Shown: positions 3-36,088 of the stretch, piece after piece
Position numbering within the stretch: the first letter of the stretch is position 1
Layout: the number at the start of each line of letters is the position of its first letter
Assembly (NCBI GenBank): GCA_964650515.1
Contig: CAZYUB010000005.1
Location: 12,304 to 76,303 of the forward strand
Length of the DNA: 64,000 nucleotides
Reading direction: 5' to 3'
From: an uncultured Planctomycetia bacterium
GTDB lineage: Bacteria; Omnitrophota; Gorgyraeia; Pluralincolimonadales; Pluralincolimonadaceae
The notes under the pieces: model-generated
Seen by the model: only the letters and a program-made list of their open reading frames with translations
Database searches by the model: none
Told to the model about the DNA's origin: nothing
Made by a program: the position numbers and the translations under genes

Positions 3-269
3 CTGACGGAAGTCGGCTATAAGAGCTCCACCGGCGCGGCGAAAGCCCCGTGGGAGCACCAGCTCGGCAGGGAGGTCGACCTCGAACTGCAGAAGGACTG
101 CTACACCGCGATGCTCGAGGCGTTCTGGGACAAACCGTGGTTCTACGGAATGTATTGGTGGTACTGGGGAACAAATGATAGAATGGGCGGAAGCACCGAC
201 CGCGGGTTCAATATACAGAACAAGCCCGCGCAGGACGCCGTGAAAGAATGGTACGGAAAAACGCGTTAA
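3..269 (+). CDS. C-terminal fragment of a glycosidase-like protein. The 5' end lies outside the window. It ends ...PWFYGMYWWYWGTNDRMGG...KEWYGKTR*. It may be a clan GH-A TIM-barrel hydrolase such as a mannanase, given the GH130 gene downstream.
   Basis: Open frame from the window edge to TAA at 267-269. The Trp/Tyr-rich C-terminal strand is typical of the last beta-strands of GH-A enzymes. It is followed by an AGGAGG RBS and the GH130 gene. The family assignment is a guess. Confidence 0.35.
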   Translation: MTEVGYKSSTGAAKAPWEHQLGREVDLELQKDCYTAMLEAFWDKPWFYGMYWWYWGTNDRMGGSTDRGFNIQNKPAQDAVKEWYGKTR

Positions 270-285
270 ACAACAGGAGGATAAG

Positions 286-1215
286 ATGAGGTTTGTCACG
301 AAGAAGTACGAGAAGAACCCGATAATAACGAAAGAGGACATGCCTTACCCGTGCGAATGCGTCTACAATTCCGGCGCGGCGAAATACAACGGCAAGTATA
401 TACTGCTCCTGAGGGTATTGCTGCTCAACGGCAACTGCGTATTCGGCCTGGCCGAGAGCGACGACGGCTACAACTTCAGGATACATCCGAAACCGGTCAT
501 GGTCCCGGCGACTACCGGCCCGTTCGCGAGATATGAGGAGAAGGGCATCGAGGACCCGAGGGTCACGAAGCTCGGCGACACCTATTATATCTTCTACAGC
601 TGCTATTCCGGGCTCGGGATGAGGATAGGCCTCGCGAAGACGAAGGATTTCCGGAAGTTCGAGAGGATCGCGATGACCACGACGATCGATTACCGGAACT
701 CCGTACTCTTCCCCGAGAAGATAAAAGGGAAGTACTGCCGTTTCGAACGGCCTAACGTCGGGCGCCAGGGCATATGGATATCCTATTCGCCGGACCTGGT
801 ACACTGGGGCGAGCAGGAGCACATTATGGCCCCTTACGGCAACCATATATGGGAGGACCATAAGATCGGCGCGGGCGCGCCCCCGATAAAGACGAAGAAG
901 GGCTGGCTCAGCATCTACCACGGCGTCACATGGACGATGGACGGGATGACATACAGGCTCGGCGTCGCGATGCATGACCTGAAAGACCCGGCGAAAGTAC
1001 TGGGTATCGCCGACCAGTTCATACTGAGCCCCGACGAGGTCTTCGAGAGGGTCGGTTATGTCCATAACGTCGTCTTTACGTGCGGCGCGATACCGGAGCC
1101 GGACGGCACCGTCAAGATATACTACGGTGGCGCGGATACGGTAATGTGCGTCGCTACGGCAAAGATAGACGACCTGGTTGACATTGCGCTGAAGGGAAAG
1201 AGGAAGCCGCTATAA
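286..1215 (+). CDS. GH130-family glycoside phosphorylase-like protein (DUF377 / beta-1,4-mannooligosaccharide phosphorylase family).
   Basis: 309 aa. An AGGAGG RBS sits 8 nt upstream. It has the N-terminal NPIIT motif, GIEDPRVTKLGDTYYIFYS, and a beta-propeller-like repeat pattern with conserved Asp residues typical of GH130. Confidence 0.75.
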   Translation: MRFVTKKYEKNPIITKEDMPYPCECVYNSGAAKYNGKYILLLRVLLLNGNCVFGLAESDDGYNFRIHPKPVMVPATTGPFARYEEKGIEDPRVTKLGDTYYIFYSCYSGLGMRIGLAKTKDFRKFERIAMTTTIDYRNSVLFPEKIKGKYCRFERPNVGRQGIWISYSPDLVHWGEQEHIMAPYGNHIWEDHKIGAGAPPIKTKKGWLSIYHGVTWTMDGMTYRLGVAMHDLKDPAKVLGIADQFILSPDEVFERVGYVHNVVFTCGAIPEPDGTVKIYYGGADTVMCVATAKIDDLVDIALKGKRKPL

Positions 1216-1262: not shown

Positions 1263-2096
1263 GTGGTCGACAGCCGCGGAAGGATGTTGACGAGGTACCA
1301 CATGCCGACGCTTAAGGAGCAGGGACGCCGAAAGGTGATATCGCGGCTTCTCGACGCAATAGGCGCTATATTATACGGTTCGGGCTATAAGGTCGGGGCG
1401 ATAGGGGTCGGCTGCCCCGGGCCTCTCGACAACAAAAGAGGGATCGTCCTTTCCCCGCCCAACCTTCCGGATTGGCGCGGAGTGCGCCTGAAGGAGACCA
1501 TCGAAAGGAGATTCCGCATCCCGGTGATCGTAGAGAACGACGCGAACTGCGCCGGCCTCGGCGAGGCGATAACCGGTGCTGGCCGCGGCGCCTCGAGCAT
1601 GGTCCTGCTGACGCTCGGGACCGGCATCGGCAGCGCGATAGTCCTCGACGGGAAGTTGTGGACAGGCAAAGGCGGGTTCGCCTCAGAGCTTGGCCACACC
1701 TCAATAGACGTCGACGGGCCGAAATGCGGCTGCGGTAACAGGGGATGCATAGAATTATACGCGTCTGCCACGGCTGTCGCGCGCCGCGGTAAAATGGAAG
1801 CGGAAAAGGTATTTCGCGCGGCTGCCAAAGGCAATAAGATCGCGCGCAAGGTAGTTGATGATACTGCGTATTACCTCGGCTGCGCGCTAGCGAACATAGT
1901 GAACGCGCTCGACCCGGAGGTGATAGTCCTCGCGGGAGGCATGGCGAAAGCCGGCCGAAGATTCATGGGCAAAGCAGAGAAAACAATGCGCGAAAGGGCT
2001 TTGAAAGAATCGTCAAGGGGAGTCAGGTTGGTTACCGCTAAACTCGGAGAAGACGCCGGACTGATCGGCGCCGCATGGAGGGCTAAGGGGCTATGA
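1263..2096 (+). CDS. ROK-family sugar kinase (glucokinase/fructokinase-like). The true start is probably upstream near 1218-1230, because the ROK N-terminal motif LGIDIGGTNIRLG is encoded in frame before the first ATG/GTG/TTG.
   Basis: It has the glycine-rich ATP-binding DIGGT motif and the ROK zinc motif CGCGNRGCIELYAS. See the finding on the missing canonical start. Confidence 0.8.
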   Translation: MVDSRGRMLTRYHMPTLKEQGRRKVISRLLDAIGAILYGSGYKVGAIGVGCPGPLDNKRGIVLSPPNLPDWRGVRLKETIERRFRIPVIVENDANCAGLGEAITGAGRGASSMVLLTLGTGIGSAIVLDGKLWTGKGGFASELGHTSIDVDGPKCGCGNRGCIELYASATAVARRGKMEAEKVFRAAAKGNKIARKVVDDTAYYLGCALANIVNALDPEVIVLAGGMAKAGRRFMGKAEKTMRERALKESSRGVRLVTAKLGEDAGLIGAAWRAKGL

Positions 2097-4924
2097 AGAG
2101 GATGCTGCTTTCGTTATTAACCGTATTTATGATCTCGCCGTGCTGGGCTTCGGGTACGGAAACCGTTCTCTGGGACGGGTTTGAGTCCAGGAACCTGTGG
2201 ACGATCGCCCCGTGGGGAGATGCCGCAAAGCTCACGGTTTCGGCAGAGAACAAGGTCGAGGGCCAGAAGTGTTTTAAGGTCAGTTTTGGCCCTGAAGGAA
2301 AACAGAATCCCCCTAAGGGCGTCGTTCTCGAGAGGGAACAATCTGCGATAGACCTTGATACATCAAAAAAGCTGACGGTCGATATATATAACGACGGCCC
2401 TCCGTTTGAGCTTGCCCTGGTCCTTTATACGGACGAATTCATCGAAAGCTCGACAACTACGGTCAAGAAGGGCCTTAATAAGGACATAGAGTTTGACCTT
2501 CACGCGAAGGACTTTAAATCGCCCAACAGCAAGTGGCAGTATAATTATACCCCGCATCCCGGGACAATCGCATGGCGGATCATGTTCATCATGTATGCGG
2601 AAGATACCGAAGCCAAGGCCAACGTATATTTTGACAATATGCGGCTGGAAAGAGCGCCGAGAATAACAAGCGAGCAGAAGGTAATAGCGCTGGCAGATTA
2701 CACCGCGCCGGATATCACGGCGGTGAAGCCCGCGGCCGACAAGGTCGAGCAGTACGAGAAGTTCGAGATAGACGTCGCGTTCGGGGGCACGTACCAGTAC
2801 CCTTATAACCCGGATAACATAGACCTGACGGCATATTTCAAGTCGCCGGACGGGAAGAAGTATACGATGCCCGGGTTCCTCTATTCGGGAAAGGTCGACG
2901 GCGTGAACATATCGGACGCCGCCTGGAAAGTAAGGTTCGCGCCGGTCAAGCCCGGAAAGTGGGAGTATTACGTCACGGTAAAGAACCCGAAAGGCACGGC
3001 CAAGTCGGAGACGATGTCTTTCGAGTGCACGACTCCCGCGTCGCCTAAAAGAGGATTTGCGCGCATAAGCAAGAAGGACCCGCTCTTCTTCGAGTTCGAG
3101 AACGGCGAATATTACTATCCGTTGGGACAGAATGTTGCGTGGGCCCCCTCAGTGGATATGTTCGAGCACTATTTCTCGAAGATGCACGACAATATGTATA
3201 ACTGGACGCGCGTATGGATGTCGAGCTGGCAGTGCGCGATAGAATGGCTCGACGTAGGCGAGTACCACGGGCTCAACAATTATAACCTTAAGAACGCGAA
3301 ACTCCTGGACGACATAACGGACCTCGCCAGGAAATATGACCTGTATTACCAGCTCGTGCTGAACCAGCACGGCCAGCTAAGCACAAAGATCGACCAGGAA
3401 TGGCTGAACAACCCGTATAACAAAAAGAACGGCGGGCCCTGCGAGAAACCGTCGGACTTCCTGACAAACGCCGAGGCGAAGAGACTCTACAAGATGCGCG
3501 TACGCTATATAATCGCGCGCTGGGGTTACTCGACGAACATCCTCGCGTGGGAGCCGTGGAACGAGCTGACGCTCATGGACGGCTACGACGCGAAGCTCGA
3601 CATCCCGTGGCAGAAGGAGATGGCGCAGTACATGAATTCGGTCGACCCGCACAGGCACATGATAACGACGAGCTATTTCGGAAACTTCCCGAAAGAGATA
3701 TGGAAACAGCCCGAGATAAGCTACGGCCAGATACACATGTATACCCCCGAGATAGTGACTACGCTGGACGGGCTTTCGGTAATGATGAAAGATTACAAGA
3801 AAGCGTATTTCGTCGGGGAATACGGCGGAAGCAATTTAAGCGGCATTGACATACAGGACCCGGACGCGACGGTGCACCATAACGGGATCTGGGCCGCATA
3901 CATGACAGATTCCTCGGGAAACGCAATGCCATGGCAATGGGATGAATACATCGATCCGAACAACCTGTATTTCCACTGGCATTCGCTCGCCAAATTCAAC
4001 GAGGGAGAAGACAGGCGCAGCCAGCACTATGGGTACAGCCGCGGCACGCTGGAGCTTGACGACGGCACGATACTGATGGCCCAGGGCATACTGAACAACA
4101 AGAAGGCGCTTATCTGGGTCTATGACCTCTACAGGACGAAGTTCAACCAGGGCGCGCTTAAACCTCTCCATATAAAAGGGGCCCTGTTGACGGTCGCTGG
4201 GATGGATAAAGGCGATTACAGGGTGGAGTTCTGGGACACGTATAAGGGGGAAATCACCGGGACCGCGCAGGCGTCAAGCAACGGGAAGAAGATGGAGATA
4301 GCGTTGCCCGAAATAACGAAGGACTTCGCGCTGAAAGTGATAAGCATGAATGATAAGGCGCGCCCGAAAGCATGCAAGGCGCGTATAGAATCCAAATACC
4401 TGAATAAGGAAGCCGCCGAAGAGCCGCGCGACCTCTGGGAAGGTTTCGAGGCCAAGGGTGATTGGGACTATGCCGGATGGGGAGACATAGTCAAGGTCTC
4501 TCTCGCGAAGGACAGGGTGACCGAAGGCAAGAGCGCGTTCAAGGTCGTCTTCGATAAGGCAGGCAGGAGGACCGACGGAAAGGGCATATGCGTCCAGAAC
4601 ACGAAACTGGACCTCGACCTCTCAAAGGCGAAGAAGATGGTCTTCGACGTATATCTTGACGCCCCGAACTCGATAGAGGTATCGGTAGTCCTCAACAGCA
4701 AGGGATTCTGTGAAAGCGTGCGCCGGATAATAGTACCCGGCTGGAACAGGAACATCACATTCGACCTCATGGCGAAGACCTTCAAGAAGGAGTCGACGAA
4801 GTGGCAGCATAAGGGCGAGATCGACAGGGCGGAGCCGATGAAAGAGGTCATGTTCATGTTCTATCCGTGGGATGTCGAGTCCGGAAGTTTCTACCTGGAT
4901 AATATCGGATTTCGCAACGATTAG
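2093..4924 (+). CDS. Secreted GH5-like (clan GH-A) endoglycanase with a related CBM-like jelly-roll module at both the N- and C-terminus.
   Basis: 943 aa with a signal peptide (MKRMLLSLLTVFMISPCWASG). It carries the catalytic acid/base motif NILAWEPWNE and the nucleophile motif YFVGEYGG. The N-terminal module (VLWDGFESRNLWTIAPWGD...VYFDNMRLE) and the C-terminal module (DLWEGFEAKGDWDYAGWGD...FYLDNIGF) are clearly homologous. Confidence 0.7.
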   Translation: MKRMLLSLLTVFMISPCWASGTETVLWDGFESRNLWTIAPWGDAAKLTVSAENKVEGQKCFKVSFGPEGKQNPPKGVVLEREQSAIDLDTSKKLTVDIYNDGPPFELALVLYTDEFIESSTTTVKKGLNKDIEFDLHAKDFKSPNSKWQYNYTPHPGTIAWRIMFIMYAEDTEAKANVYFDNMRLERAPRITSEQKVIALADYTAPDITAVKPAADKVEQYEKFEIDVAFGGTYQYPYNPDNIDLTAYFKSPDGKKYTMPGFLYSGKVDGVNISDAAWKVRFAPVKPGKWEYYVTVKNPKGTAKSETMSFECTTPASPKRGFARISKKDPLFFEFENGEYYYPLGQNVAWAPSVDMFEHYFSKMHDNMYNWTRVWMSSWQCAIEWLDVGEYHGLNNYNLKNAKLLDDITDLARKYDLYYQLVLNQHGQLSTKIDQEWLNNPYNKKNGGPCEKPSDFLTNAEAKRLYKMRVRYIIARWGYSTNILAWEPWNELTLMDGYDAKLDIPWQKEMAQYMNSVDPHRHMITTSYFGNFPKEIWKQPEISYGQIHMYTPEIVTTLDGLSVMMKDYKKAYFVGEYGGSNLSGIDIQDPDATVHHNGIWAAYMTDSSGNAMPWQWDEYIDPNNLYFHWHSLAKFNEGEDRRSQHYGYSRGTLELDDGTILMAQGILNNKKALIWVYDLYRTKFNQGALKPLHIKGALLTVAGMDKGDYRVEFWDTYKGEITGTAQASSNGKKMEIALPEITKDFALKVISMNDKARPKACKARIESKYLNKEAAEEPRDLWEGFEAKGDWDYAGWGDIVKVSLAKDRVTEGKSAFKVVFDKAGRRTDGKGICVQNTKLDLDLSKAKKMVFDVYLDAPNSIEVSVVLNSKGFCESVRRIIVPGWNRNITFDLMAKTFKKESTKWQHKGEIDRAEPMKEVMFMFYPWDVESGSFYLDNIGFRND

Positions 4925-5138
4925 GGATATAGACGGAGAAACGCAAGGATTTCCCATAAAATAGCAACAATGTCATCTTGACAAAGGAACCTGAAAATGG
5001 TATATTTTCCCCGAAATAGTTATACCAGAGTATACTTGCCTTGTTCTCTAGTTAATTAGTAGCATTATGTCTGTACATCTCTGTTTTCATTAACTTAGTA
5101 TACTCGGATATACTAAACAAGGGAAAGGGGGTAGCAGG
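4925..5138 (+). other. AT-rich (about 35% GC) intergenic/leader region. It holds two copies of the palindromic 8-mer AGTATACT (5029-5036, 5097-5104) and a related GATATACT (5107-5114).
   Basis: Read directly from the sequence. The composition stands out against a 60% GC background. Confidence 0.5.
4978..5006 (+). promoter_or_regulatory. Sigma70-type promoter: TTGACA, a 17-nt spacer, then TATATT.
   Basis: TTGACA lies at 4978-4983 and TATATT at 5001-5006. They sit inside a 214-bp AT-rich intergenic region, about 130 nt upstream of the PEP-CTERM gene at 5139. Confidence 0.5.
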
Positions 5139-5768
5139 ATGGTAAAGATGCTCATGGTAATGGCGGTCATGGCTATGGTGCTGTGCCTTAACACCGCGGC
5201 GCATGCTACGGTCCAGTTCGATTTCGCTGCTGATACGCAAGGTTGGGCGGGCGAGGATTGGGGTTCGGGGCTTCCTGCTTTACAGCAGGTTTCGTGGTCC
5301 AAGGATCCCGCAACGGGGAGCCTCGAAGCAAGCACTTCAACCATGACGTATACGCGCGCTGACGGCTCCAACTGGGGCAAAGTATACCTTAAAAGTGATT
5401 TTTCCGCTTCGAAGAACCTGTCCGCAGAACCTCTCTACACGATGGATTTCTACGCTCCCGATAACATCTACTACGCGAAGGCAAAGCTCGGGGTAAGGAC
5501 AGGCGGCTCCTGGGACCTGACCGAATCGAGCGAGATAAGCTTAAATCCCGGCTGGAACACCCTCGTATGGGATATGAGCGGCGCCTCCAACCTTGCCGAC
5601 GCGAGACAGCTTGGCATCGAAGTGTCTGGATGGCTGCCGGTCACCGGCGATGCGAAATGGAATATCGATAACGTTGCGACAAATCCCGTCCCTGAGCCGT
5701 CGAGCATGCTGCTTCTCGGCGCGGGCCTCGCGGGAATATTCGGAGCAAGGAAGAGATCCTCGAAGTGA
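5139..5768 (+). CDS. PEP-CTERM-anchored secreted protein with an N-terminal CBM-like domain.
   Basis: 209 aa with a signal peptide. The C-terminus PVPEPSSMLLLGAGLAGIFGARKRSSK is a PEP motif followed by a TM helix and a basic tail. The N-terminus begins ATVQFDFAADTQGWAGEDWG. A GGGGG-type RBS lies upstream. Confidence 0.8.
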   Translation: MVKMLMVMAVMAMVLCLNTAAHATVQFDFAADTQGWAGEDWGSGLPALQQVSWSKDPATGSLEASTSTMTYTRADGSNWGKVYLKSDFSASKNLSAEPLYTMDFYAPDNIYYAKAKLGVRTGGSWDLTESSEISLNPGWNTLVWDMSGASNLADARQLGIEVSGWLPVTGDAKWNIDNVATNPVPEPSSMLLLGAGLAGIFGARKRSSK

Positions 5769-5798
5769 CTTTAAAATACCAAAAAGGGAGGAGGTGAA

Positions 5799-6464
5799 AT
5801 GATTATGATGAAGCGTATCCTCATTATTGCAGCTGTGTTATTGCTCGGTAATCCGGCGTTCGGCGCGACCCTGTATGACTTCGAATCGGGCACCGACGGC
5901 TGGACATTCCAGGATTATACCGACAGCCAGGCAATTTCCGCTGTCGCGCAGTCCTCGGCCCAGGCAAAATCCGGTTCTTACTCGTTGATGGGAACAGCGC
6001 ATCTCGTACCGGGCGACGCCAATTACAGCAAGGGCGAAGTACTGGTCAACAGGGGCGCGGCGAACACGTTGAACCTTAACGGGCTCCAGACGTCGGTATC
6101 CGTATTCGGACCTACGGGAGCGGCGGGAACCAACCCTTCGTCCCCCAACGGATGGCAGGTGTTCTTCAAAGACGCGAACTGGTTGTCATGGTACGGCCCG
6201 TGGACGAACATGACGGTCAACACATGGCAGACATTGTCAGTGACGCCCGGCGTGACGACCCCGGCATTCGTCGATTCCGGCTTCGACCCGACCCAGATAA
6301 TGGTCATGGGAGTGAAGCTCGGCACCGGCGGGGCCTCTACCGGCACCTATGACGGCGCGGTATACGTGGACCAGGTTAGCGTGGTCCCGGAGCCCGCAAG
6401 CATGCTTCTTCTCGGCAGCGGTTTGGTAGGCATCCTTGGTTTCGCGAGAAGGAAGAAGGCTTAA
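5799..6464 (+). CDS. PEP-CTERM-anchored secreted protein with an N-terminal CBM-like domain.
   Basis: 221 aa with a signal peptide. The C-terminus is VVPEPASMLLLGSGLVGILGFARRKKA. The N-terminus begins ATLYDFESGTDGWTFQDY. A GGAGGAGG RBS lies upstream. Confidence 0.8.
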   Translation: MIMMKRILIIAAVLLLGNPAFGATLYDFESGTDGWTFQDYTDSQAISAVAQSSAQAKSGSYSLMGTAHLVPGDANYSKGEVLVNRGAANTLNLNGLQTSVSVFGPTGAAGTNPSSPNGWQVFFKDANWLSWYGPWTNMTVNTWQTLSVTPGVTTPAFVDSGFDPTQIMVMGVKLGTGGASTGTYDGAVYVDQVSVVPEPASMLLLGSGLVGILGFARRKKA

Positions 6465-6516: not shown

Positions 6517-8892
6517 ATGAGGAAAGTCGAAAAAGGCTTGCTCCCTCACCCGAAAATAGCTTTAATCACCCCCTTTGGCATTCCTCCACAGCGCCAGGGC
6601 GTGGCGCTTATAATGACGGTCGGCATCCTCGCGCTCATAACGCTCCTCGGCACGTCCTTCGCGATAAATATGTCCGCAGATTATAAAGGCGCCAGGAACT
6701 CCATCCAGGCCGTAAAGGCAAGGTACCTGGCGGAAGCCGGTATAAACAGGGCGGTCGCGGAGCTGCTCTACGGGGCGGAAGGTTTTACGAGCGACGCAAT
6801 CGATTCCTCGACGGAAGCATGGTCCGGGGCAAACCCGTATTCGGCGAATATAGGAAGCGACAACAGCGGGTATACCGTGACCGCAATATCCGATTGCGCG
6901 GGGCGCATCTTCATAAACGACATGAACCCGAACCTCAGGAACATGCTCGGCAGCCTTGCCGCGGCATGCGGGCTCGCGGCAGCCGACGGGCAGGCAATAT
7001 TCGACAACCGCCCGATAGGGGGGTATTCATCCGTCGAGGAGATAAAGACGGTCCCCGGCTTTACCCAGGTAAAATACGATGCGATATCCGATTCCATTAC
7101 TATCCACGCATATGTCGATCCTGATGTGTCGGCCGCAGCGCACCCGTATTCCGCGTCCCCGAGGGCGCCGGTCAACGTCAATACGGCCGGCAGGGAAGTC
7201 CTTATAGCGGTGCTCGGAGGAGTAAGCAACGGCGCAAACACCATCACATCCGCGGAAGCGGCATCGCTCGCGGACCACCTGATAAACGGCAGGCCTTATT
7301 CCACATACGACCAATTATTGGCGCGGCTGCTGACCGCTGAGACACTCGGTTATATATCGGACGGGGACGCGGCCGTCGCGATGGCCAACGCGAACCCGAA
7401 CACGGACATGATGTCCCTTAACCCGAATTATTCCTGGCGGTATAAACACGTATCAAAGGGGAATCCGAATGATGTCTCGGGATACGATGCCAACGGCCTC
7501 CCGTATGCCGTCGACAAGACATCGCTTTCAGCATATACGACGGAGTTTTCGTTCAACTCCGGCGGTTATTACGAGATAGAATCGGCCGGCATTGCCAGGA
7601 ACGCCGCAGGAATGCAGAATGCGGTAAAGAGGGTCAAGGCCTGCGTCAAGACCTTTGATATATGGCGTCAGACAACCCAGGCGCAGTTCGCGCTCGGGAT
7701 CCCGGCCAACACAGAGCTTTATCCTGAGCCGCCGGCGGTCGCCGCCGCGGCTTATGACGGCCAGGTGATGATATCGAGGATGCGCTCAACCACGCCTGCG
7801 GCTGGCGTCCCGCATTTCCTGCACAAGATGGACGGCCTGGACGCGGACAGCGCAGGCGGGAGCGCGGCAAGGACCAGTTTCGCATGGGTCCCCCTTAACC
7901 CGAACCTCGCAAGCGTGATAGACGCCGCCGATCCCGGCAACGTATTCCCCGACGGGCTCTTCTTCCCGAGGGACGACGCGACTACGAACTACTGGTTCAG
8001 GCCGGAGGGCAACATCGATTCCGCGGACGGCACGCTCGAGATATGGTTCAAGCCGAACTGGCAGTACCACTACGCGACCTTCAACAACGCGTGGCATTCC
8101 GCGAAGGTCTTCGAGGCGCAGGATAGGGGCACCGGGGGCGGCGGGTCGAACTGGGGCAACGCCTCTATGGATATCTATATTGCCGCCGACGACGACACGA
8201 TCCGCTGGAGGATAAACAACAAGAACGGCACGCAGTACACGATGCAGGCGGCGATGCCGAACACCTGGAAGCCGGGTACATGGCACCACATAGCGATAAC
8301 GTGGGATTACGAGGATTTCCTGAACGACCCCGCGCGCGCCCAGACGTTCTATATCGACGGCGCGAGCGTCATGTCATGGAACATAAAGGACGCGCCGAAA
8401 CAGTTCCTCGGGGATAACGGCCTCGAGTTCGGCTGCGATACGCCGTACCAGGAGCCGCCGAACGCGACTTACGGGGAGGTAAGGATATTCGCGTCAAGCG
8501 GCGCGACATCTCCCGGCATGGATTACGCGGCCGGGGTATATTACGATGTAGGCGACGCGGAGTTCCTGTCTTCCGCGAATACGCTCGGCACAGTCAGGTT
8601 AGGGACTCTGTCATGGACCGAGCATACGGCGGATGCCGCGGGAAACCCGGTCGTCCCGGGCGCCGACCTGACGTTCGACATATTCGACGGCGCGGCATGG
8701 CTCGGCAACAGCGCGGGCAGGTCGAACCCGGCGGGCAACCCGCTCGACGCGGTGACCGGAGGCGCGGGCGCGGTCCGATACAGGGCGTATTTCATCGAGA
8801 CAGGCAGCGGCCTCTTCGATACCCCTGTCCTCGACGACGTGACGATAACGTATTTCAGCAGGGCCGAGATGCTTTATTGGAGGGAGTTGTAG
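6517..8892 (+). CDS. GspK-like type II secretion / pseudopilin-family protein fused to a large C-terminal extension containing a LamG (concanavalin A-like lectin) domain.
   Basis: The N-terminus has a GspK-like hydrophobic segment (QRQGVALIMTVGILALITLLG) and two helix-hairpin-helix motifs characteristic of GspK (APVNVNTAGREVLIAVLGG and GGYSSVEEIKTVPGFTQVKYDAI). The C-terminal half has LamG-like segments (LEIWFKPNWQYHYATFNNAWH...WHHIAITWDYED...FYIDGASV). The start was taken at the ATG at 6517, which has an AGGGGG RBS. The ORF track starts at 6436, and an in-frame GTG at 6601 is also possible. Confidence 0.55.
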   Translation: MRKVEKGLLPHPKIALITPFGIPPQRQGVALIMTVGILALITLLGTSFAINMSADYKGARNSIQAVKARYLAEAGINRAVAELLYGAEGFTSDAIDSSTEAWSGANPYSANIGSDNSGYTVTAISDCAGRIFINDMNPNLRNMLGSLAAACGLAAADGQAIFDNRPIGGYSSVEEIKTVPGFTQVKYDAISDSITIHAYVDPDVSAAAHPYSASPRAPVNVNTAGREVLIAVLGGVSNGANTITSAEAASLADHLINGRPYSTYDQLLARLLTAETLGYISDGDAAVAMANANPNTDMMSLNPNYSWRYKHVSKGNPNDVSGYDANGLPYAVDKTSLSAYTTEFSFNSGGYYEIESAGIARNAAGMQNAVKRVKACVKTFDIWRQTTQAQFALGIPANTELYPEPPAVAAAAYDGQVMISRMRSTTPAAGVPHFLHKMDGLDADSAGGSAARTSFAWVPLNPNLASVIDAADPGNVFPDGLFFPRDDATTNYWFRPEGNIDSADGTLEIWFKPNWQYHYATFNNAWHSAKVFEAQDRGTGGGGSNWGNASMDIYIAADDDTIRWRINNKNGTQYTMQAAMPNTWKPGTWHHIAITWDYEDFLNDPARAQTFYIDGASVMSWNIKDAPKQFLGDNGLEFGCDTPYQEPPNATYGEVRIFASSGATSPGMDYAAGVYYDVGDAEFLSSANTLGTVRLGTLSWTEHTADAAGNPVVPGADLTFDIFDGAAWLGNSAGRSNPAGNPLDAVTGGAGAVRYRAYFIETGSGLFDTPVLDDVTITYFSRAEMLYWREL

Positions 8893-9792: not shown

Positions 9793-11037
9793 ATGCGCGG
9801 CCACAAGACCGTAAAAATAACAGGGTGCCTTCTTTTGCCTTTGGCGGCCCTCCTCATGATCTGCCTCCCGGGCTGCGCGAAAAAGACCGGTGAAAAAGAG
9901 ATACTGATGTGGCTCGTCGGCTCGGAGAAGCAGGCCCAGAAGATAACCGAGCTCGGGCTTGATTTCTACAGGGAGACCGGCGTCAAAGTCAGCTGCGAGG
10001 CGATCTCGTGGGGCGAAGCGCACTCTAAATACCTGACCTCCGTCGTCGGTGAGGTGACCCCGGACATCGGCACGATGGGCCTGACGTGGGGGACCGAGTT
10101 CGGCAGCCTGGGCGCGATGGTCGACCTGCGCAAAGAATACCCGGAAGATCTTGAGCGGATATCGAAGAACATATTCCCGGGGCTGGCCGAATCTATCCGC
10201 TTCAACGACAGCGTCTTCGCGGTCCCGTTCGACATGAGCGAATACATAATGTTCTACAGGTCCGACCTGATAAAATCGCCGCCGCGGACGTGGAAAGAGC
10301 TGACATCGCTGCTATCGGAACTTAACGCTTCCGGGAAGTCGATGATAATCGATTGGGGCGGGCTCGGATGGATAGGTTATTGCCCTTACCTCTGGCAGAA
10401 CGGCGGGGATTTCTATAATAAGGACAGGACCTCTGCGACGCTCGATACCGAAGAAGCCGCGGCCGCGATGAGATTCTTCACCGACCTTTACAAGAAATAC
10501 CAGGTGCCCCTCGAGAACAAGCCGGTCGAACAGAGCTTCAGGGTAGGCGACCACCCAATATTCATATCCGGGAACTGGAAGATGAAGAGCCTCACGGATG
10601 TCGCGCCGGAACTCGACGGGAAATGGGCCATAGCGCCGCTTCCCGCCGGGCCGACCGGAAAGCGCACGGGCTTCATCGGCGGAAGGGTCATGGGGATATT
10701 CTCGATGTCGAAGCTGAAGGACGAGTCGTGGGAGTTCATCAAATACCTCTCAAGGGCGGATATACAGGTGAAGCTTTACGAAGCTACGCTCGAATCGCAC
10801 GACACGTACCTGCCCCCGAACATGAAGACGTGGGATACCATGCCAATGGACGCGTCCTTCAAGGGCCCGCTGAAAGATCAGGCGATGGATTCCAAGGGCC
10901 CGCCGTCGGTGCTCGGATGGGATGACAGCACGAGGTTCATAGATACCGCGATACAGCTTATAGTGCTCAAGGGCAGGGACGTGAAGGCGGCCCTTGCCGA
11001 AGCGGACAGGGAACTCGACAGCAGGAGGAAGCATTGA
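9793..11037 (+). CDS. Extracellular solute-binding lipoprotein of a carbohydrate ABC transporter (CUT1 family).
   Basis: The lipobox LPGCAKK follows a signal peptide. The 414-aa protein fits the family-1 binding-protein pattern and is followed directly by two permease genes. Confidence 0.75.
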   Translation: MRGHKTVKITGCLLLPLAALLMICLPGCAKKTGEKEILMWLVGSEKQAQKITELGLDFYRETGVKVSCEAISWGEAHSKYLTSVVGEVTPDIGTMGLTWGTEFGSLGAMVDLRKEYPEDLERISKNIFPGLAESIRFNDSVFAVPFDMSEYIMFYRSDLIKSPPRTWKELTSLLSELNASGKSMIIDWGGLGWIGYCPYLWQNGGDFYNKDRTSATLDTEEAAAAMRFFTDLYKKYQVPLENKPVEQSFRVGDHPIFISGNWKMKSLTDVAPELDGKWAIAPLPAGPTGKRTGFIGGRVMGIFSMSKLKDESWEFIKYLSRADIQVKLYEATLESHDTYLPPNMKTWDTMPMDASFKGPLKDQAMDSKGPPSVLGWDDSTRFIDTAIQLIVLKGRDVKAALAEADRELDSRRKH

Positions 11038-11936
11038 ACCGCGTCCTTAAGGAGATCAACAAGCAGAAGCCGGCGTATTTGTTCATAGCGCCGTCGTTTT
11101 TGCTCTTCACGGTCTTCCTTATCATACCGGTCTTCGCGTCGCTCTACTGGAGCTTTACGGAGTACAATATACTTCAGCCGCCGAAGTTCGTCGGGTTCCA
11201 GAACTACGCGAATATACTCTTCCATGACCCGCGGTTCTGGAAGGCGATGACAAATACGGCCATATTCGTCGTCGGCACGGTGCCGACGAGCATTGCAATA
11301 TCCCTGCTTCTCGCGATGGCGATAGACCAGAATATAAGGTTCAAGAACTGGTTCAAGACGTTCTTCTTTATACCGAGCATCACATCCATAATAGCGGTGT
11401 CCGTCATCTGGAAATGGCTTTACGCGAGCGGAAAATACGGGCTCTTCAACCACTTCCTGTCATCAGTAGGCATCCCGCCGGTCAACTGGCTCGGCGTCGA
11501 CTGGACGCTGCCGTCCATAATACTGATGAGCGTTTGGGGCGGGCTCGGGTATAACATGATTCTCTTCATCGCGGGCCTGCAGGGCATCCCGCAGGTCTTC
11601 TACGAGGCCGCGGAGGTCGACGGCGCGAGCGATTGGGACAAGTTCAGGAACGTGACACTGCCGCTCCTGAGGCCGACGATGCTCTTCGTCACGATAATGT
11701 CGGTAATAAGCGCGTTCCAGGTCTTCGAGCAGGTCTATATAATGACATATAACTCGGAAGGCGCGGTGGGAGGGACCCTCGACTGCGCGCTCACGATAGT
11801 CGCTTACCTTTACGAGACCGGGTTCCAGAGGTTCGCGATGGGGTACGCGTCGGCGCTGGCATACCTTATCTTTTTCGTGCTCTTCATAGTCACTATAATC
11901 AACATGAAGATAGTCGAAAAGAAGATAGAGTACTGA
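11034..11936 (+). CDS. Carbohydrate ABC transporter permease (MalF/UgpA-like).
   Basis: Six predicted TM segments. The EAA loop reads EAAEVDGASDWDKFRNVTLPLLRP. Confidence 0.85.
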   Translation: MNRVLKEINKQKPAYLFIAPSFLLFTVFLIIPVFASLYWSFTEYNILQPPKFVGFQNYANILFHDPRFWKAMTNTAIFVVGTVPTSIAISLLLAMAIDQNIRFKNWFKTFFFIPSITSIIAVSVIWKWLYASGKYGLFNHFLSSVGIPPVNWLGVDWTLPSIILMSVWGGLGYNMILFIAGLQGIPQVFYEAAEVDGASDWDKFRNVTLPLLRPTMLFVTIMSVISAFQVFEQVYIMTYNSEGAVGGTLDCALTIVAYLYETGFQRFAMGYASALAYLIFFVLFIVTIINMKIVEKKIEY

Positions 11937-11937
11937 T

Positions 11938-12819
11938 ATGGACATTAAAGAGATAAAGAGGTTCAACGGGGAAGAGGCGAGGCCTTCAAGCAAGGCGAGG
12001 CAGCAACGGCTGCTTAAGACATTCGTATACATATTCCTCGCAATAGGGTCTTTCATAATGGTGGTCCCGTTCGTCTGGATGGTCGTGACCTCGTTCAAGC
12101 CGCTCGACGAGATAAACACATACCCGCCGAGCTTCTTCATCAGGAAACCGACGTTCGCGGCCTACATCGAGCTGTTCAGCATAATACCGATGGGCAGGTA
12201 TTTCATGAACAGCCTCATAGTGACGTCCTCGATAACGCTCGCGAACATATTCTTCTGCTCGCTGGCCGGATACGCTTTCGCGAAACACCGTTTCTTCGGC
12301 CGCGACAAGCTCTTCCTGCTGCTGGTCGGCTCGATGATGATACCGTGGCAGGTCAACCTGATACCCAGTTTCGTAATAATCAAGAAGTTCGGCTGGCTCA
12401 ACTCGTTCTACGGCCTGATAATACCGGCGATGTCGGGCGCTTTCGGCATATTCCTCATGAGGCAGTTCATAATGAACATCCCGGACGACCTTATCGACGC
12501 CGCGAAGATAGACGGATGCAGCGAATTCACGATATACAGGAGGGTCATACTGCCGCTGATACAGCCGGCGCTCGCCTCCCTGGCGATATTCACGTTCATG
12601 GGCCAGTGGAACAACTTCGTATGGCCGCTCGTGGTCATATATTCGTCGAAGATGAGGACAATACCGCTCGCGCTCTCCGTCCTGAACGGGCAATTCGGCA
12701 CAAATTTCGCGATGGTAATGGCGGGGGCGGTCATAGCGACGCTTCCGGTCCTCATAGTGTTCATAGCGTTCCAGAAGTACTTCATAAAAGGCATAGCCCT
12801 GACAGGCCTGAAGGCCTAG
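11938..12819 (+). CDS. Carbohydrate ABC transporter permease (MalG/UgpE-like).
   Basis: The EAA loop reads DAAKIDGCSEFTIYRRVILPLIQP. It is polytopic. Confidence 0.85.
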   Translation: MDIKEIKRFNGEEARPSSKARQQRLLKTFVYIFLAIGSFIMVVPFVWMVVTSFKPLDEINTYPPSFFIRKPTFAAYIELFSIIPMGRYFMNSLIVTSSITLANIFFCSLAGYAFAKHRFFGRDKLFLLLVGSMMIPWQVNLIPSFVIIKKFGWLNSFYGLIIPAMSGAFGIFLMRQFIMNIPDDLIDAAKIDGCSEFTIYRRVILPLIQPALASLAIFTFMGQWNNFVWPLVVIYSSKMRTIPLALSVLNGQFGTNFAMVMAGAVIATLPVLIVFIAFQKYFIKGIALTGLKA

Positions 12820-12907: not shown

Positions 12908-13933
12908 ATGAAACGTTTCGAAAAATCCAGCATAACGATAAAAGACATAGCCAAAAAGGCGGGCGTCGCGCACTCTACGGTCTCTCTTGTTATGAACGAC
13001 CGCGAACACGTGTCGCCGAAGCTGCGCGAGAAGATCTTAAAGATCGCGAACGAGATGGGCTATATGCCCAACATGGTCGCGCGCAGCCTCATCAGCAAGA
13101 AATCCTCCACGGTCGGCGTCGTATTCCCCGAGAACCCGCACTTCTTCACGATAACGTACTTCCTTATGATAATAGAGGGCATCCAGAACGCCTGCAAGAA
13201 GTACAACCGAGCGCTTATGTTCTTCTCGCTCGACCAGACGAAAGGCGAGTCGTATTACCAGATATCCCGCAAATGGCTGATAGACCTGATGATAATAATG
13301 AACGTCGACTACACGAGGGACATCTCAAAAGATATCCAGGACCTGCGCGATAACGGCATATACTTCTCGTTCCTGACGAAATACCTCGGCAAGGAGAAGG
13401 TCAATTCGGTCTGCGTCGATAACTACGAAGGCGTGCGGCTCGCTCTCGAATATTTGGCCTCGCAAGGCCACAAACGGATCGGTTTCATCGCCGGCAACCC
13501 GAACTCGGCGGACGGCCCGGAGAGGTTCCAGGCATATAAGTCGCTCTCGAAGAAATTCGGGTTCGACCAGGACGAAGATCTCATAGCGCAGGGCGATTTC
13601 ACTTTCGAAAGCGGCGAGCGCGAGATGCCGAAACTCCTCGGCCTCAAGAAACGCCCGACGGCGGTCTTCGCCGCGAGCGATTACATGGCGATAGGCGCGA
13701 TGCGCGTGATAAAGGAGCAGGGCCTCTCGATACCTAAAGATATCGCCGTCATGGGGTTCGACAATACGCTCGAAGCCGCGTACGTAGAGCCGGCCCTTAC
13801 GACGGTAAGGCAGCCGCTGCAGGAGATGGGGGAGAAGGCCGTCGACCTCGCGATACGCTCTATGAACGACGAGAATTTTGAACCACAGACGCTTGCCATC
13901 AAACCGGAACTCATAAAGAGACAATCATGCTAA
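12908..13933 (+). CDS. LacI-family transcriptional regulator.
   Basis: The N-terminal HTH reads ITIKDIAKKAGVAHSTVSLVMN. A periplasmic-binding-protein-like sugar-binding fold follows. 341 aa. Confidence 0.85.
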   Translation: MKRFEKSSITIKDIAKKAGVAHSTVSLVMNDREHVSPKLREKILKIANEMGYMPNMVARSLISKKSSTVGVVFPENPHFFTITYFLMIIEGIQNACKKYNRALMFFSLDQTKGESYYQISRKWLIDLMIIMNVDYTRDISKDIQDLRDNGIYFSFLTKYLGKEKVNSVCVDNYEGVRLALEYLASQGHKRIGFIAGNPNSADGPERFQAYKSLSKKFGFDQDEDLIAQGDFTFESGEREMPKLLGLKKRPTAVFAASDYMAIGAMRVIKEQGLSIPKDIAVMGFDNTLEAAYVEPALTTVRQPLQEMGEKAVDLAIRSMNDENFEPQTLAIKPELIKRQSC

Positions 13934-16900
13934 AGATCCGCTTTAACCCATTGGTGTATTATGCCCTTTTCATTTTAGCGGTCTTCGCCGCGCCGGTATT
14001 CGCGGAAGACGCGGCCGCCGCCGCAAACATGACGCAGGGCCCGACTTTCGAGGTAAAACAGGTCGACGGCGTCAACGTCCCGTTCCAGAACGGCATACCT
14101 TTCCCGTCGTGGGAGAGGCAGGAGCGCGCATACGTGGACCTCAACGGCAACTGGAAGACGCAAAGGCAGAAAGCCGACCATAAGCTCACGCTGTATAAGA
14201 GGACGCTGGATAATATCACGCTTGTCGAGCAGGAAGGCGGCGGAAGGCACGGCGCCGGATACGATGATTCCGCGTGGAAAGAGAAAGCCATACCCGGCGT
14301 CGAGAACCCGGCTCCGGACAGGTATATGGACGGCGCATGGTACAGGCGGCATTTCAGCGTTCCGGCGGACGCGGCCGGAAAATACGTCAAACTTATGTTC
14401 GAGGCCGCGAACTATTTTACGGATGTCTGGGTCAACGACAAATGGGTCGGCTGCCATGAAGGCGGATATACGCCGTTCGCGTTCGATGTGAGCCCTTACC
14501 TCAATTACGGAAAGGATAACGTCATAGCCGTGCGGGTCGACAACATACCGTGGATCCCCAACGGCGACTCCTCGAAGGAGGCGCAGGCGACAAACGACCA
14601 TAACATAATCCCGTATGCTACCGGCGACTGGTGGAACTACGGCGGCATAACGAGGAACGTATATCTCGAGATATCGCCGGCCGTATCGGTCGTGCGCGCG
14701 GATGTCCGCTCGAAACCCTCGGGCGAGAAGGACTCCGAGCTGGCAGTCGAAGCGGTCGTTTATAACCGCAGCGGCGAGGAAGTCACGGCGACGGCGGGGG
14801 TCAGGGTCCTGTCGACCGGCATAAAAGATAAGAATATCGGCGAACTTTCGGTCAAGAAGGTCGCCACGAGCAAGACGATGCCCGTCCAGGGCGAGGCCTC
14901 GAAAGAGATAACGCTGAAGCCCGGCGAAGTGCGCGCGATAAGCTTCTCGCTGAAGTCGGGCGCGCTGAAGCACTGGTCGCCGGAGTCGCCGAACCTCTAT
15001 GTCCTGCAGGTCACCCTCGGGGATAAGAAGAAGAAATTCGACGAACTTTATACGCAGTTCGGCGTCAGGGAGGTCCGCGTCGACAAGGACAGCCCGAAGG
15101 TCCTGCTAAACGGCAAAGAGGTATTCTTGCGCGGCATAGCCAGGCACGAGGCATTCTACGGGGAGCCCGGCCCGGGAGAGTTCGGGGCCCCGAGGATCAT
15201 CGAGGATTTCAAACTGATCAAGGAAGCGAACGCGAATTTCGTCAGGACCGCGCATTACCCGAACGAACAGCAGACGTATTCCATAGCGGACAGGATGGGA
15301 TTGCTCGTGTGGGAGGAGATCCCGGTATTCTGGTTCGGCGGGCCCGAGTTCGTGATCCAGAAAAATGTGCGCGGCATCGCGAGGCAGATGTGGCTCGAGA
15401 TGATATACCGCGATTACAACAGGCCGTCTATAGTCATCTGGAGCACCTGCAACGAGTGCAGCTGGCAGAAGGAGAGGGCTGAATTCATAAAAGATCTGAA
15501 GGATAACGCGCAAAAAGCCGACGGCACCCGCCTCGTCGCGCAGTCGGCTTCAGGAAGCGACCCGACGGACCCGACCCAGAAGGAATGCGACATCATCGGG
15601 TTCACTACCTATTACGGAATATTCTACGGAAGCTCCTATTATTCCGACACGAAGGAAGCGCTCGAGAAGACGCGCAAGGCCTTTCCGGGTAAACCGGTGA
15701 TCTCCACCGAATACGGCATCTGGTCCGCTTACGGCGACGTTCCGCAGGAGAAGGTCCAGATAGAGGTCGCGAAGGATACGTTCGCGGCGTTCGCGGAGCT
15801 CCCGTATGTCACCGGCGCTGCGTGGTGGACGATCGCGGATTGGCATACGATGATAAACGAGCCGCAGCATATGGGCCTGCTGACGATAGACAGGAAGTTC
15901 CAGAAGCCCGTATATTTCCAGGTACAGCGCCAGTACGCGATGCTCCTCGGCGACCTTTCCGTCGGCATGAAAGAGCCGAAAGACGAGGAGACCGTAAAAG
16001 GAAAACTGAATATATCCGCCGAGATAACCGGCAAGGAGAAGCCTGAATTCGTCGACCTCATTGTGGAAGGGAAACAGCTCGGGCGCCTCTCTCAGAAGAA
16101 GGGCGTATACCAGATGGAGTTCGATACCGCCAAGATAGAGGACGGCATGAGGACCCTGATCGTGCGCGCGAAGAGCAAGAAAGGATATTTCGTATCCGAT
16201 TTCGTAAGGGTCAATGTCGATAATACCGATGAACCGCCTCTCCTCGGCATAGCGCTGAAGGACGGCGACCTCGTCATGGGCAAGGTGCTGCTGAGCGTGT
16301 CCGCGTCGGACGACAGGGCCGATCCGGTAGTGACGTATTCCGTGGACGGCGCGGAGCCGGAAAAAATGGCGAGCAGGGTAGAGGGTTCCTACCAGGCCGA
16401 ATGGGATGTCTCGGCGTTGGCCGACGGGTCGGAACACGAGATAAGGTTCCGCGCGGCCGATTCGGGCGGGCAGGCAGCGGAACGCAGCGTCAAGGTAAAG
16501 ATAGACGGCAAGCCGGGCAAATACGTCGACCTGCCGTACGACCACGACTGGATATCGGAGAACGGCAGGTATACTGACGGGACCGGATGGGATTACGCCG
16601 CCGAGGACCTGCCTGCATCCAATTCGGAGTTCATATATAACGGAAAGGACAGGGTCAAATTCAGGTTCGGGGACAAATCCGACGGGGCGAAGAATACGGT
16701 AGAGTGCGGCAAGCAAAAAATAACTTTTGCGCCCGGCTATTACGGCAAGGTCCATATACTCGCTGCGATGCATGACGGAGGCGCGAAGGTCCCGTTCCTG
16801 CTGAACTATACGGACGGGACGCAAGGGAAGGCCCTCGCGGGGTTCTCCGACTGGTGGGGCGCCAACGCGGTCTTCGGGGAAGACATAGCGATAAAGACAT

Positions 16901-18522: not shown

Positions 18523-19458
18523 ATGGTAGTGCTAGCGGTCGTGCTGTTGTTGTTGTGCCCGTCCCTGGGTTGCGCGGAAGCCATAGGAAGTACCCCGTTC
18601 ACGGGGCATAAGATAGAAGCTGACAAATCGTTCTCTGACTGGAAGGGTGTCGCGCCTGAGGCCGAGAATACCGCGGCCATCAGCGAAGGCGAGTATATAT
18701 GGAAGGACGCCGTCGGCGACGATACCGGCAACGGGAAGTATACCTATCCTCTCGATAAAGCCCTGAAGAAGGGCGCGGACCTGAAGGAGTTCAGGGTCAC
18801 GTTCGATGACGATAACCTTTACTTTCTCGTAAAGACGAACCGTCCCGGCGACTGGTGGACGCCCTACAGGGTGATAGGCATTGACACCGACGGGGCTTCC
18901 GGAGGCACGGGCGGAATGCAGGTGTTGGCCGAGGGCGACCTGGATACGTTATCGTCGGATTCGGGGACATACGCGGAGCTGAAGGTCGCGCCGGAACTCG
19001 CGTGCGAATACGTCGTGGCGCTCTCATCTACGTACAAGGGCCGTATATGGGATGTGAACGCGAAGCTTGTCGCGTTCAGGGACGACCAGCCGGAGGATAC
19101 GCCCGGGTTCAAGATCGCGGACATAAACTGGAACACGATCGAGGTCGCGATACCGTGGGCGCTGATAGGGGGCAAGCCGCAGGGCAAGGCATACAGGTTT
19201 ATAATCGCGGTGGGGCAGCAGGACGGCGACACTGCCAGGGAAATTCACGAAGTCGCCAGCGAATGGCACGGAGGAGGTGGTGAGACGAGCGACGCCGGCG
19301 GTGTAGATCCCGACGTATACGACCTGGCTGGCGCTGAGCGCGCAGTCCAGGAGAAGGAGCTGGGAAGTTTCAGGATGAGCGCTCCGCCCGGGGACACTGA
19401 GGGCTTCGCTACGATAGACAAGTCATATCTGACGGTCTATTTTGGCCCGAAACAGTGA
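18523..19458 (+). CDS. Secreted paralog B of the GH2 C-terminal module (function unknown; possibly glycan-binding).
   Basis: 311 aa with the signal peptide MVVLAVVLLLLCPSLGCAEA. An RBS (GGAAAGG) lies upstream. It shares every family motif. Confidence 0.7.
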   Translation: MVVLAVVLLLLCPSLGCAEAIGSTPFTGHKIEADKSFSDWKGVAPEAENTAAISEGEYIWKDAVGDDTGNGKYTYPLDKALKKGADLKEFRVTFDDDNLYFLVKTNRPGDWWTPYRVIGIDTDGASGGTGGMQVLAEGDLDTLSSDSGTYAELKVAPELACEYVVALSSTYKGRIWDVNAKLVAFRDDQPEDTPGFKIADINWNTIEVAIPWALIGGKPQGKAYRFIIAVGQQDGDTAREIHEVASEWHGGGGETSDAGGVDPDVYDLAGAERAVQEKELGSFRMSAPPGDTEGFATIDKSYLTVYFGPKQ

Positions 19459-19486
19459 ACCGATAATAAAACAGGAGGTGGTCAGA

Positions 19487-35830: not shown

Positions 35831-36088
35831 ATGAAAAAGGCGATCGCTTTAACGGCCGCGATGGCGGTGATGGCGTTATCGGGTTGCGATAAAGCGGGTT
35901 CATGGGTCGATGAACAGCAGTCCGCCGTGGATAAAAGCGTCCAGGGCCGCATGGAGACGGTCAATATAGAAGCGCTCGGCGCGGTCGGGCAGAACAGCAC
36001 CGCAGTACGCAGGAGCGTAGACAAGGTCCTTGACGCTAACGACGCGAGAAACAGCGGTTTAGAGGCTATTACAGAGAAGATAAAATGA
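35831..36088 (+). CDS. Small lipoprotein (hypothetical).
   Basis: 85 aa. A lipobox-like LSGCDK follows a signal peptide. Confidence 0.4.
   Translation: MKKAIALTAAMAVMALSGCDKAGSWVDEQQSAVDKSVQGRMETVNIEALGAVGQNSTAVRRSVDKVLDANDARNSGLEAITEKIK

Follow-up and report, generated by a model that had tools for sequence, protein, structure and literature searches.

We analysed a 64-kb stretch of DNA from an uncultured bacterium of the phylum Omnitrophota (contig CAZYUB010000005.1; hereafter the window), focusing on two adjacent genes encoding small secreted proteins, A and B, which lie downstream of the gene for a secreted multidomain enzyme, G. Enzyme G is composed, in order, of a signal peptide, a CBM59-like carbohydrate-binding module (CBM; G_N), a DUF5060 domain, a putative glycoside hydrolase (GH) core of clan GH-A that is GH5-like, and a second CBM59-like module (G_C), the two modules being ~165 amino acids (aa) each. 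Proteins A and B contain a single ectodomain of ~160–170 aa between a signal peptide and a PEP-CTERM tail. The signal peptides were called by eye from a hydrophobic core followed by a cleavage-type site. In both tails a VPEP motif is followed by a hydrophobic helix and by a cluster of Arg and Lys residues at the C-terminal end. With PF07589 the tails reach 34.1 bits (A) and 32.1 bits (B), over a curated cut-off of 20.7, and with TIGR02595 they reach 26.1 and 23.2 bits, respectively, over one of 16. This agrees with an initial annotation of this DNA, which had assigned both proteins a canonical PEP-CTERM signal; the motifs that it had quoted for the starts and ends of A, B and both enzyme modules were also found where it had placed them. 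A and B were the only proteins with PEP-CTERM tails among all open reading frames (ORFs) of the window, and VPEP is invariant throughout the clade of related loci described below. No lipobox was found in A or B by sequence inspection. A and B are predicted to be Sec-exported proteins carrying one jelly-roll module and a canonical PEP-CTERM signal each. The features of the locus are listed in Table 1.

Table 1 Features of the locus, in window positions unless residues or a locus number (L) are given
Feature	Position	Strand	Details and evidence
Protein A	5139..5768	+	209 aa; ORF list
Protein A, signal peptide	residues 1-23	+	MVKMLMVMAVMAMVLCLNTAAHA followed by T, AHA/T-type site; by inspection
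Protein A, ectodomain, CBM59-like	residues 24-182; 5208-5684	+	opens with ATVQFDFAADTQGWAGEDWG, closes with WNIDNVATN
Protein A, PEP-CTERM sorting signal	residues 183-209; 5685-5765	+	PVPEPSSMLLLGAGLAGIFGARKRSSK
Protein B	5799..6464	+	221 aa; ORF list
Protein B, signal peptide	residues 1-22	+	...GNPAFG followed by A, AFG/A-type site; by inspection
Protein B, ectodomain, divergent CBM59-like	residues 23-195; 5865-6383	+	opens with ATLYDFESGTDGWTFQDY, closes with VYVDQVSV
Protein B, PEP-CTERM sorting signal	residues 196-221; 6384-6461	+	VPEPASMLLLGSGLVGILGFARRKKA
Enzyme G, secreted, multidomain	2093..4924	+	943 aa; ORF list
G_N, N-terminal CBM59-like module	2156..2653; residues ~22-187	+	VLWDGFESRNLWT...VYFDNMRLE; 162 bits, G-family HMM
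G_C, C-terminal CBM59-like module	4415..4915; residues ~775-941	+	DLWEGFEAKGDWDYAGWG...FYLDNIGF; 175 bits, G-family HMM
Near-consensus sigma-70 promoter	4978..5006	+	TTGACA, 17 nt, TG-n-TATATT; 11/12 matches plus extended -10 TG
Two invariant blocks with palindrome AGTATACT	5029..5104 (5029-5036, 5097-5104)	+	between promoter and start codon of A
Module protein of 193-194 aa	L001:3234-3815 (~2 kb upstream of window start); L019:3239-3823; L020:3242-3826; L021:7-588		
GH130 mannoside phosphorylase	286-1215	+	PF04041, E 8e-58
ROK sugar kinase	1263-2096	+	PF00480, E 1e-67
Pseudopilin-Laminin_G_3 fusion	6517..8892	+	PF13385, E 5e-11; PF03934, PF14341 and NF037980 at N-terminus
ATP-binding cassette (ABC) sugar-binding protein	9793-11037	+	ORF; Pfam of orthologues in L001-L006
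ABC permeases, two	11034-11936; 11938-12819	+	ORFs; Pfam of orthologues in L001-L006
LacI regulator	12908-13933	+	ORF; Pfam of orthologues in L001-L006
GH2	13927-18507		1526 aa; downstream of first LacI

The two end modules of enzyme G are true paralogues, with 35% identity across 159 residues (BLASTP, E 7e-35). Pairwise BLASTP of A or B against G_N or G_C gave no signal (E > 0.2), and hhalign of A and B against a shallow G profile of three sequences returned a probability < 1%; by these comparisons the proposed kinship would not have stood. Since a word-indexed homologue search with G_C yielded only three fragments, an exhaustive HMMER search was aimed at the G modules, with a profile of G_N and G_C as the query. 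This search detected 548 proteins at E ≤ 1e-3, and a deep hidden Markov model (HMM) of the G family was built from 179 of the domains found. The family module occurs in up to five copies in proteins of 1000–1400 aa and also makes up stand-alone proteins of ~190–260 aa. On the deep HMM, A reached 33.2 bits, whereas none of 2000 shuffles of A exceeded 8.1 bits; B scored 10.8 bits against 8.1 for the shuffles, the match covering the N-terminal motif only. With hhalign, run on the ectodomains alone after removal of the signal peptide and the PEP-CTERM tail, the whole domain was aligned to the G family both for A (98.0%, E 2.5e-13, 139 columns) and for B (96.1%, E 3.3e-9, 145 columns), and A aligned to B at 90.7%. 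In addition, bridging sequences were found: the B orthologue of a more distant relative (L007) scored 30 bits on the G HMM over the full model length, and an unanchored module protein of 193 aa scored 86 bits and is listed by Pfam under PF21253, a domain that is matched by 15 of 47 G-family members (best E 4.7e-12). The placement of B rests on the profile–profile comparison together with the B orthologues. These results demonstrate significant deep-profile similarity, including the profile–profile similarity on which the initial annotation had staked its claim that the ectodomains of A and B and the end modules of G are the same kind of domain. Its wording that A and B encode copies of the enzyme's module holds for the shared family, but "copies" is too strong, as the identity of A and B to G_N and G_C is 16–22% (match columns) and both are nearer to the unanchored 193-aa protein (31–35%). 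A, B, G_N and G_C are best described, from their sequences, as old and distant relatives and not as recent copies.

The FE..GW motif at the start of the domains and the Y.DN motif at the end map to the two outermost strands of the family HMM, the first and the last, both of which are conserved. These motifs are widespread in the jelly-roll CBM superfamily and alone are no proof of specific kinship, so the specific relationship of A and B to G rests on the profile tests. It could accordingly be argued that the likeness reflects a generic jelly-roll CBM fold with common FE...W and Y.DN end motifs, and that A and B are functionally unrelated to the enzyme modules; the blank BLASTP comparison, the low probability with the shallow profile, the low identity and the spread of the fold matches over many CBM families would all fit such a view. 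However, the deep HMM and hhalign scores lie far beyond those of shuffled sequences and cover the whole domain, A, B and G all detect one and the same CBM59 structure at comparable scores (see below), and the bridging members match both profiles. Furthermore, an internal signature, TG..W.W.ES....L.PGWN, is common to A, B and the G modules beyond the terminal motifs, and is kept in A as KLGVRTGGSWDLTESSEISLNPGWNT compared with the family consensus LALKTGDGWEWYESKPVKLKPGWN. The profile statistics argue strongly against a merely generic likeness, which we regard as very improbable.

The family to which these domains belong was examined by profile and by fold. Pfam scans of the A and B ectodomains gave PF21253 and no other domain; A scored 34.0 bits, above the gathering score of 27, and several B orthologues carry precomputed PF21253 matches. 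G_N and G_C themselves gave no Pfam match to PF21253, and a match of PF09092 (Lyase_N) on G_N was below threshold. A combined profile of A, B and G matched residues 314–463 of the Protein Data Bank (PDB) entry 1wky, a CBM59, at E 1.9e-12, followed by the mannan-specific CBM27 (E 1.2e-5) and then by CBM11 (8e-4). When separate HMMs were used, the 1wky CBM59 was detected by those of A (30.9 bits), B (25.5 bits) and G (29.2 bits), none of 1000 shuffles scoring more than 14 bits. The C-terminal module of 1wky is the CBM59 of a GH5_8 mannanase (PMC8952944). AlphaFold2 models of G_N and A (predicted local distance difference test scores, pLDDT, of 94.9 and 83.3) were all-beta sandwiches with an identical strand order. 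In Foldseek searches, the top match of the A model was the 1wky CBM59 (E 2e-9, 24% identity, root-mean-square deviation 3.2 Å), followed by CBM27 and CBM11; the G_N model found CBM11 first, with CBM4, CBM22 and CBM28 among the top matches and 1wky also listed. The two lists overlap widely, sharing CBM4, CBM11, CBM22, CBM27, CBM28 and CBM-like domains of agarases. Because the A, B and G profiles each detect the 1wky CBM59 and the AlphaFold models of A and G_N adopt the same jelly roll, all four domains are assigned to one CBM59-like family (Pfam PF21253).

The central part of enzyme G was also compared with known families. The DUF5060 domain was recognized by PF16586 (E 1.9e-13), and residues 217–749 matched PDB 9gmj, annotated as a "DUF5060 domain-containing protein", at E 8.7e-80, with the WNE (residues 489–491) and GEYG (575–578) motifs conserved between the two. 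The core also gave weak matches to the GH5 mannanases 1qno, 3ziz and 1rh9. Calling the enzyme GH5-like, as had been done before, is reasonable on these grounds, but PF00150 found no match in the enzyme of the window and only weak matches in its orthologues. The literature on 9gmj and DUF5060 held nothing relevant on the substrate of this enzyme, which for that reason we can only infer.

The arrangement of enzyme G, A and B was found in all of the eight loci in the genome collection (8/8), which come from metagenome-assembled genomes (MAGs) of Omnitrophota, one of them labelled Planctomycetia, and it is kept even where A is only ~45% identical. In relatives, the region directly upstream of the window start encodes two GH113 mannanases, a GH35 enzyme and the module protein of 193–194 aa mentioned above. 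This secreted protein, encoded between the two GH113 genes, consists of one CBM59-like module without an anchor and ends in ...YYVDNIRLE; its sequence falls between the anchored modules of A and B on one side and the enzyme-borne modules on the other. The gene order kept in the Omnitrophota clade runs from the unanchored module through the enzyme, the two anchored modules and a pseudopilin–lectin fusion to an ABC importer. In the more distant relative L007, two further genes follow A and B. The first (L007:5366-7624), directly after the pair, encodes a GH5_mannosidase (PF26410) of 752 aa with one strong and one weak family module; the second (L007:7645-9813, cut by the contig end) codes for at least 722 aa that include a tandem pair of B-type modules, scoring 172 and 190 bits, so that PEP-CTERM proteins are not alone in carrying modules of the B type.

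The gene directly downstream of B, whose position is kept in L001–L006 and L010, encodes a protein with a GspK/PilX-like minor pseudopilin N-terminus joined to a Laminin_G_3 (concanavalin-like lectin) domain. Its true start is probably near 6517, since the longest ORF, which begins with TTG at 6436, overlaps B. This fusion protein may form the tip of a pilus or pseudopilus with a carbohydrate-binding head. A second Laminin_G_3 protein, of 294 aa and with a lipobox-like N-terminus (FLGSGC), is encoded at 36085-36969, outside the glycan locus and among housekeeping genes.

Further downstream of the A and B pair lie a gene for a secreted protein of 296 aa, the ABC importer genes, the first LacI regulator and GH2, followed by a second LacI gene and GH35. 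With its GH113, GH130, ROK kinase, ABC importer, LacI, GH2 and GH35 genes, the locus is a conserved mannan-type catabolic locus. It contains no SusC/D-type genes, and its uptake genes are of the ABC type. No genes for exopolysaccharide (EPS) biosynthesis (glycosyltransferases, Wzx/Wzy or Wza) were found in the 64-kb window. The window also encodes BamA, OmpH, LpxC and LpxD, indicating that the cell is diderm. Immediately after the GH2 gene, three tandem paralogous genes (18523-19458, 19442-20425 and 20507-21466) encode secreted proteins of ~310–327 aa with a Glucodextran_C (PF09985) module only. At their C-termini these proteins are closely similar in sequence to the end of the 1526-aa GH2 encoded before them, which bears the same module, so that the trio represents a second case in this locus of stand-alone copies of an accessory module beside an enzyme, in this case without a PEP-CTERM tail. 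Between the second LacI gene and GH35, an ORF of 1099 aa (22555-25854) matched nothing in Pfam at E ≤ 0.001 and lacks an obvious signal peptide; its product could be an enzyme of the locus that has yet to be described.

A near-consensus sigma-70 promoter lies in the 214-bp gap that precedes A, and its hexamers do not vary among loci whose A proteins are only ~45% identical. Between this promoter and the start codon of A are two blocks carrying the palindrome AGTATACT, which are invariant in five divergent loci; the palindrome has only these two copies in the 64 kb. The conserved region 5' of A was also considered as an RNA element, but it showed no Rfam match and a fold z-score of 0.4, and this candidate was rejected in favour of an operator-like DNA element. 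The pair of genes appears to form a unit of its own, with a strong promoter and under the control of a repressor, and the conserved strong promoter with the operator-like palindrome pair suggests that their expression is high and regulated.

The reading that we favour, and consider reasonably probable, is that A and B capture glycans while anchored to the envelope, in a role analogous to that of surface glycan-binding proteins (SGBPs) but with an exosortase anchor where those have a lipoprotein or sortase anchor. According to this model, A and B would be exported by Sec and held in the inner membrane by the C-terminal helix, and an exosortase encoded elsewhere would cleave at the PEP motif and pass them on to the cell envelope or surface. 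There, their CBM modules would bind beta-mannan-type polysaccharide or its fragments and so concentrate substrate beside the soluble enzyme G, which would itself be targeted to the same glycan by its own two modules. The released oligosaccharides would then supply the ABC importer and, with it, the GH130 phosphorylase. A wider proposal, which we put forward only tentatively and regard as rather doubtful, is that the exosortase-anchored CBM59-like lectins and the pseudopilin–lectin fusion together form the glycan-capture apparatus of an undescribed type of polysaccharide-utilisation locus, used by this Omnitrophota clade, in which sorting would serve nutrient acquisition, or attachment to host glycans by an ultra-small, host-dependent bacterium, and not an EPS matrix.

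Several observations weigh against glycan capture by A and B. We infer the ligand only from family resemblance (to CBM59 and CBM27) and from gene context, and CBM59-like and CBM11-like modules are diverse in the glycans that they bind. The sequence of B is divergent, its PF21253 score of 22.0 bits lying below the cut-off of 27, and the protein may have another ligand or none. No exosortase family was found by Pfam scans among the genes of the 64 kb or in the fetched flanks, and the exosortase step presumes a gene elsewhere in the genome; PF09721 is counted once, among the matches listed, in an annotation table of a published Omnitrophota study, which is not decisive. To our knowledge, the route by which PEP-CTERM proteins cross the outer membrane is generally not known. 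Finally, P0082, a stand-alone member of the G family with a PEP-CTERM-like tail, lies outside a glycan-utilisation locus. It is one of four such members from other metagenomes (P0082, P0076, P0083 and P0088), whose tails show the variant motifs LPEP, YEP, PEH and CEP; the contig of P0076 is too short for its context to inform. The case of P0082 shows that anchored modules of the G family are not always coupled to enzymes, and the enzyme-adjacent arrangement is not general to the family.

The lack of an exosortase in the window would also be expected if A and B stayed unprocessed, with the helix fixing the CBM to the inner membrane on its periplasmic side and the module binding imported manno-oligosaccharides and passing them to the ABC binding protein or to a periplasmic enzyme. 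An ABC importer with its solute-binding protein is encoded 3 kb downstream, and in a diderm cell surface exposure requires an extra export step, both of which are in keeping with such a tether. On the other hand, the tails are canonical, above curated cut-offs and with a VPEP motif invariant in the clade, which argues for a dedicated sortase over a generic anchor, and type-B CBM folds typically bind polymer chains. We regard a permanent inner-membrane tether as unlikely, and sorting to the envelope for the capture of glycan remains the explanation that we prefer.

The position of P0082 bears on another possibility, namely that A and B belong to a matrix or to flocs, in the manner of the PepA-type PEP-CTERM proteins from floc-forming bacteria, binding the exopolysaccharide of the cell itself and holding cells or biofilm together, while the neighbouring genes remodel this self-made polymer. 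PEP-CTERM systems were defined by their association with exopolysaccharide loci (Haft et al. 2006, PMC1569441), and besides P0082, which is outside a catabolic locus, weak matches of A and B to the NCBIfam model floc_PepA point in this direction. These matches fall mostly on the tail, however, and at 30 and 24.5 bits they are far under the cut-off of 80. In addition, the window holds none of the EPS-biosynthesis genes looked for, and the neighbours of A and B are catabolic and uptake genes in a conserved arrangement. A role in a self-produced matrix therefore seems to us improbable compared with capture of an external glycan as a nutrient.

Most Omnitrophota are reported to be ultra-small, and host-dependent or predatory traits are reported for the phylum (PMC10066038). 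A and B might accordingly be adhesins by which an ultra-small, possibly host-dependent cell attaches to mannan-bearing surfaces of its host or prey, the locus serving to harvest host glycans. The combination of anchored lectin-like modules, the pseudopilin–LamG fusion and glycan-degrading enzymes in one locus is consistent with this idea, but the gene content (GH113, GH130, GH2 and GH35) fits ordinary catabolism of plant or algal mannan, and we consider an adhesin function quite unlikely. In order of falling likelihood, the alternatives to glycan capture are thus lectins for EPS or flocs, an inner-membrane tether, host adhesins and a generic fold.

Among environmental diderm bacteria, PEP-CTERM/exosortase sorting is common, but a function is known for few of the proteins that it sorts. 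CBM cargo in a catabolic locus suggests a concrete and testable role, the capture of glycan at the envelope, for two exosortase substrates, and the locus hints at a way in which polymer capture may be organised in a phylum that lacks Sus-type systems. Moreover, the previously unannotated end modules of DUF5060/GH5-like enzymes join a large CBM59-like family, that of the 548 relatives detected above, which helps to annotate multi-module enzymes. In the literature library searched, no paper was found on PEP-CTERM-anchored CBMs as parts of a glycan-utilisation locus. The parts are each known, and the combination of PF21253 with PF07589 is already recorded in databases for these proteins as a precomputed architecture, so the result is incremental and not surprising.

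Among known modules, the CBM59 of 1wky, from the GH5_8 alkaline mannanase of Bacillus sp. JAMB-602, is closest to those of A, B and G, with the same fold and sequence family, the FE..GW, KTG..W.W and Y.DN signatures, and a tie to mannan-active enzymes. The CBM59 label as used here denotes profile and fold likeness to 1wky together with PF21253 ("mannanase galactose-binding-domain-like", Mann_GBD_bact). In 1wky, a secreted enzyme of a Gram-positive bacterium, the module is present once, appended to the C-terminus. The modules described here, by contrast, flank a DUF5060/GH5-like enzyme on either side, make up a free secreted protein, and are found in two stand-alone proteins with PEP-CTERM tails. 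CBM27 (Thermotoga maritima Man5 and Caldicellulosiruptor ManA) and CBM11 (C. thermocellum Lic26A-Cel5E) come next among solved relatives, both by profile and by fold; they are type-B, chain-binding jelly rolls and lie clearly farther from the modules of A, B and G than CBM59 is.

With the PEP-CTERM/exosortase system (TIGR02595, PF07589), A and B share the signal peptide, the VPEP motif, the helix, the Arg/Lys cluster and the diderm host. They differ from typical PEP-CTERM cargo, which is of low complexity and is encoded beside EPS-biosynthesis genes, in carrying a recognisable CBM within a catabolic glycan locus, and from the full system in that a cognate exosortase was not seen in the window or the fetched flanks. 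The likeness of A and B to the SGBPs of Bacteroidota is a functional analogy only and not a matter of membership, since A and B have no lipoprotein signal and no SusC/SusD pair, depend on ABC-type uptake and a PEP-CTERM anchor, and belong to another phylum. Nevertheless, in their proposed role A and B would resemble SusE/SusF-like SGBPs, which are likewise non-catalytic, envelope-tethered proteins with CBM-like beta-sandwiches, are encoded next to the enzymes and transporter for the same glycan, and often occur as two adjacent paralogues.

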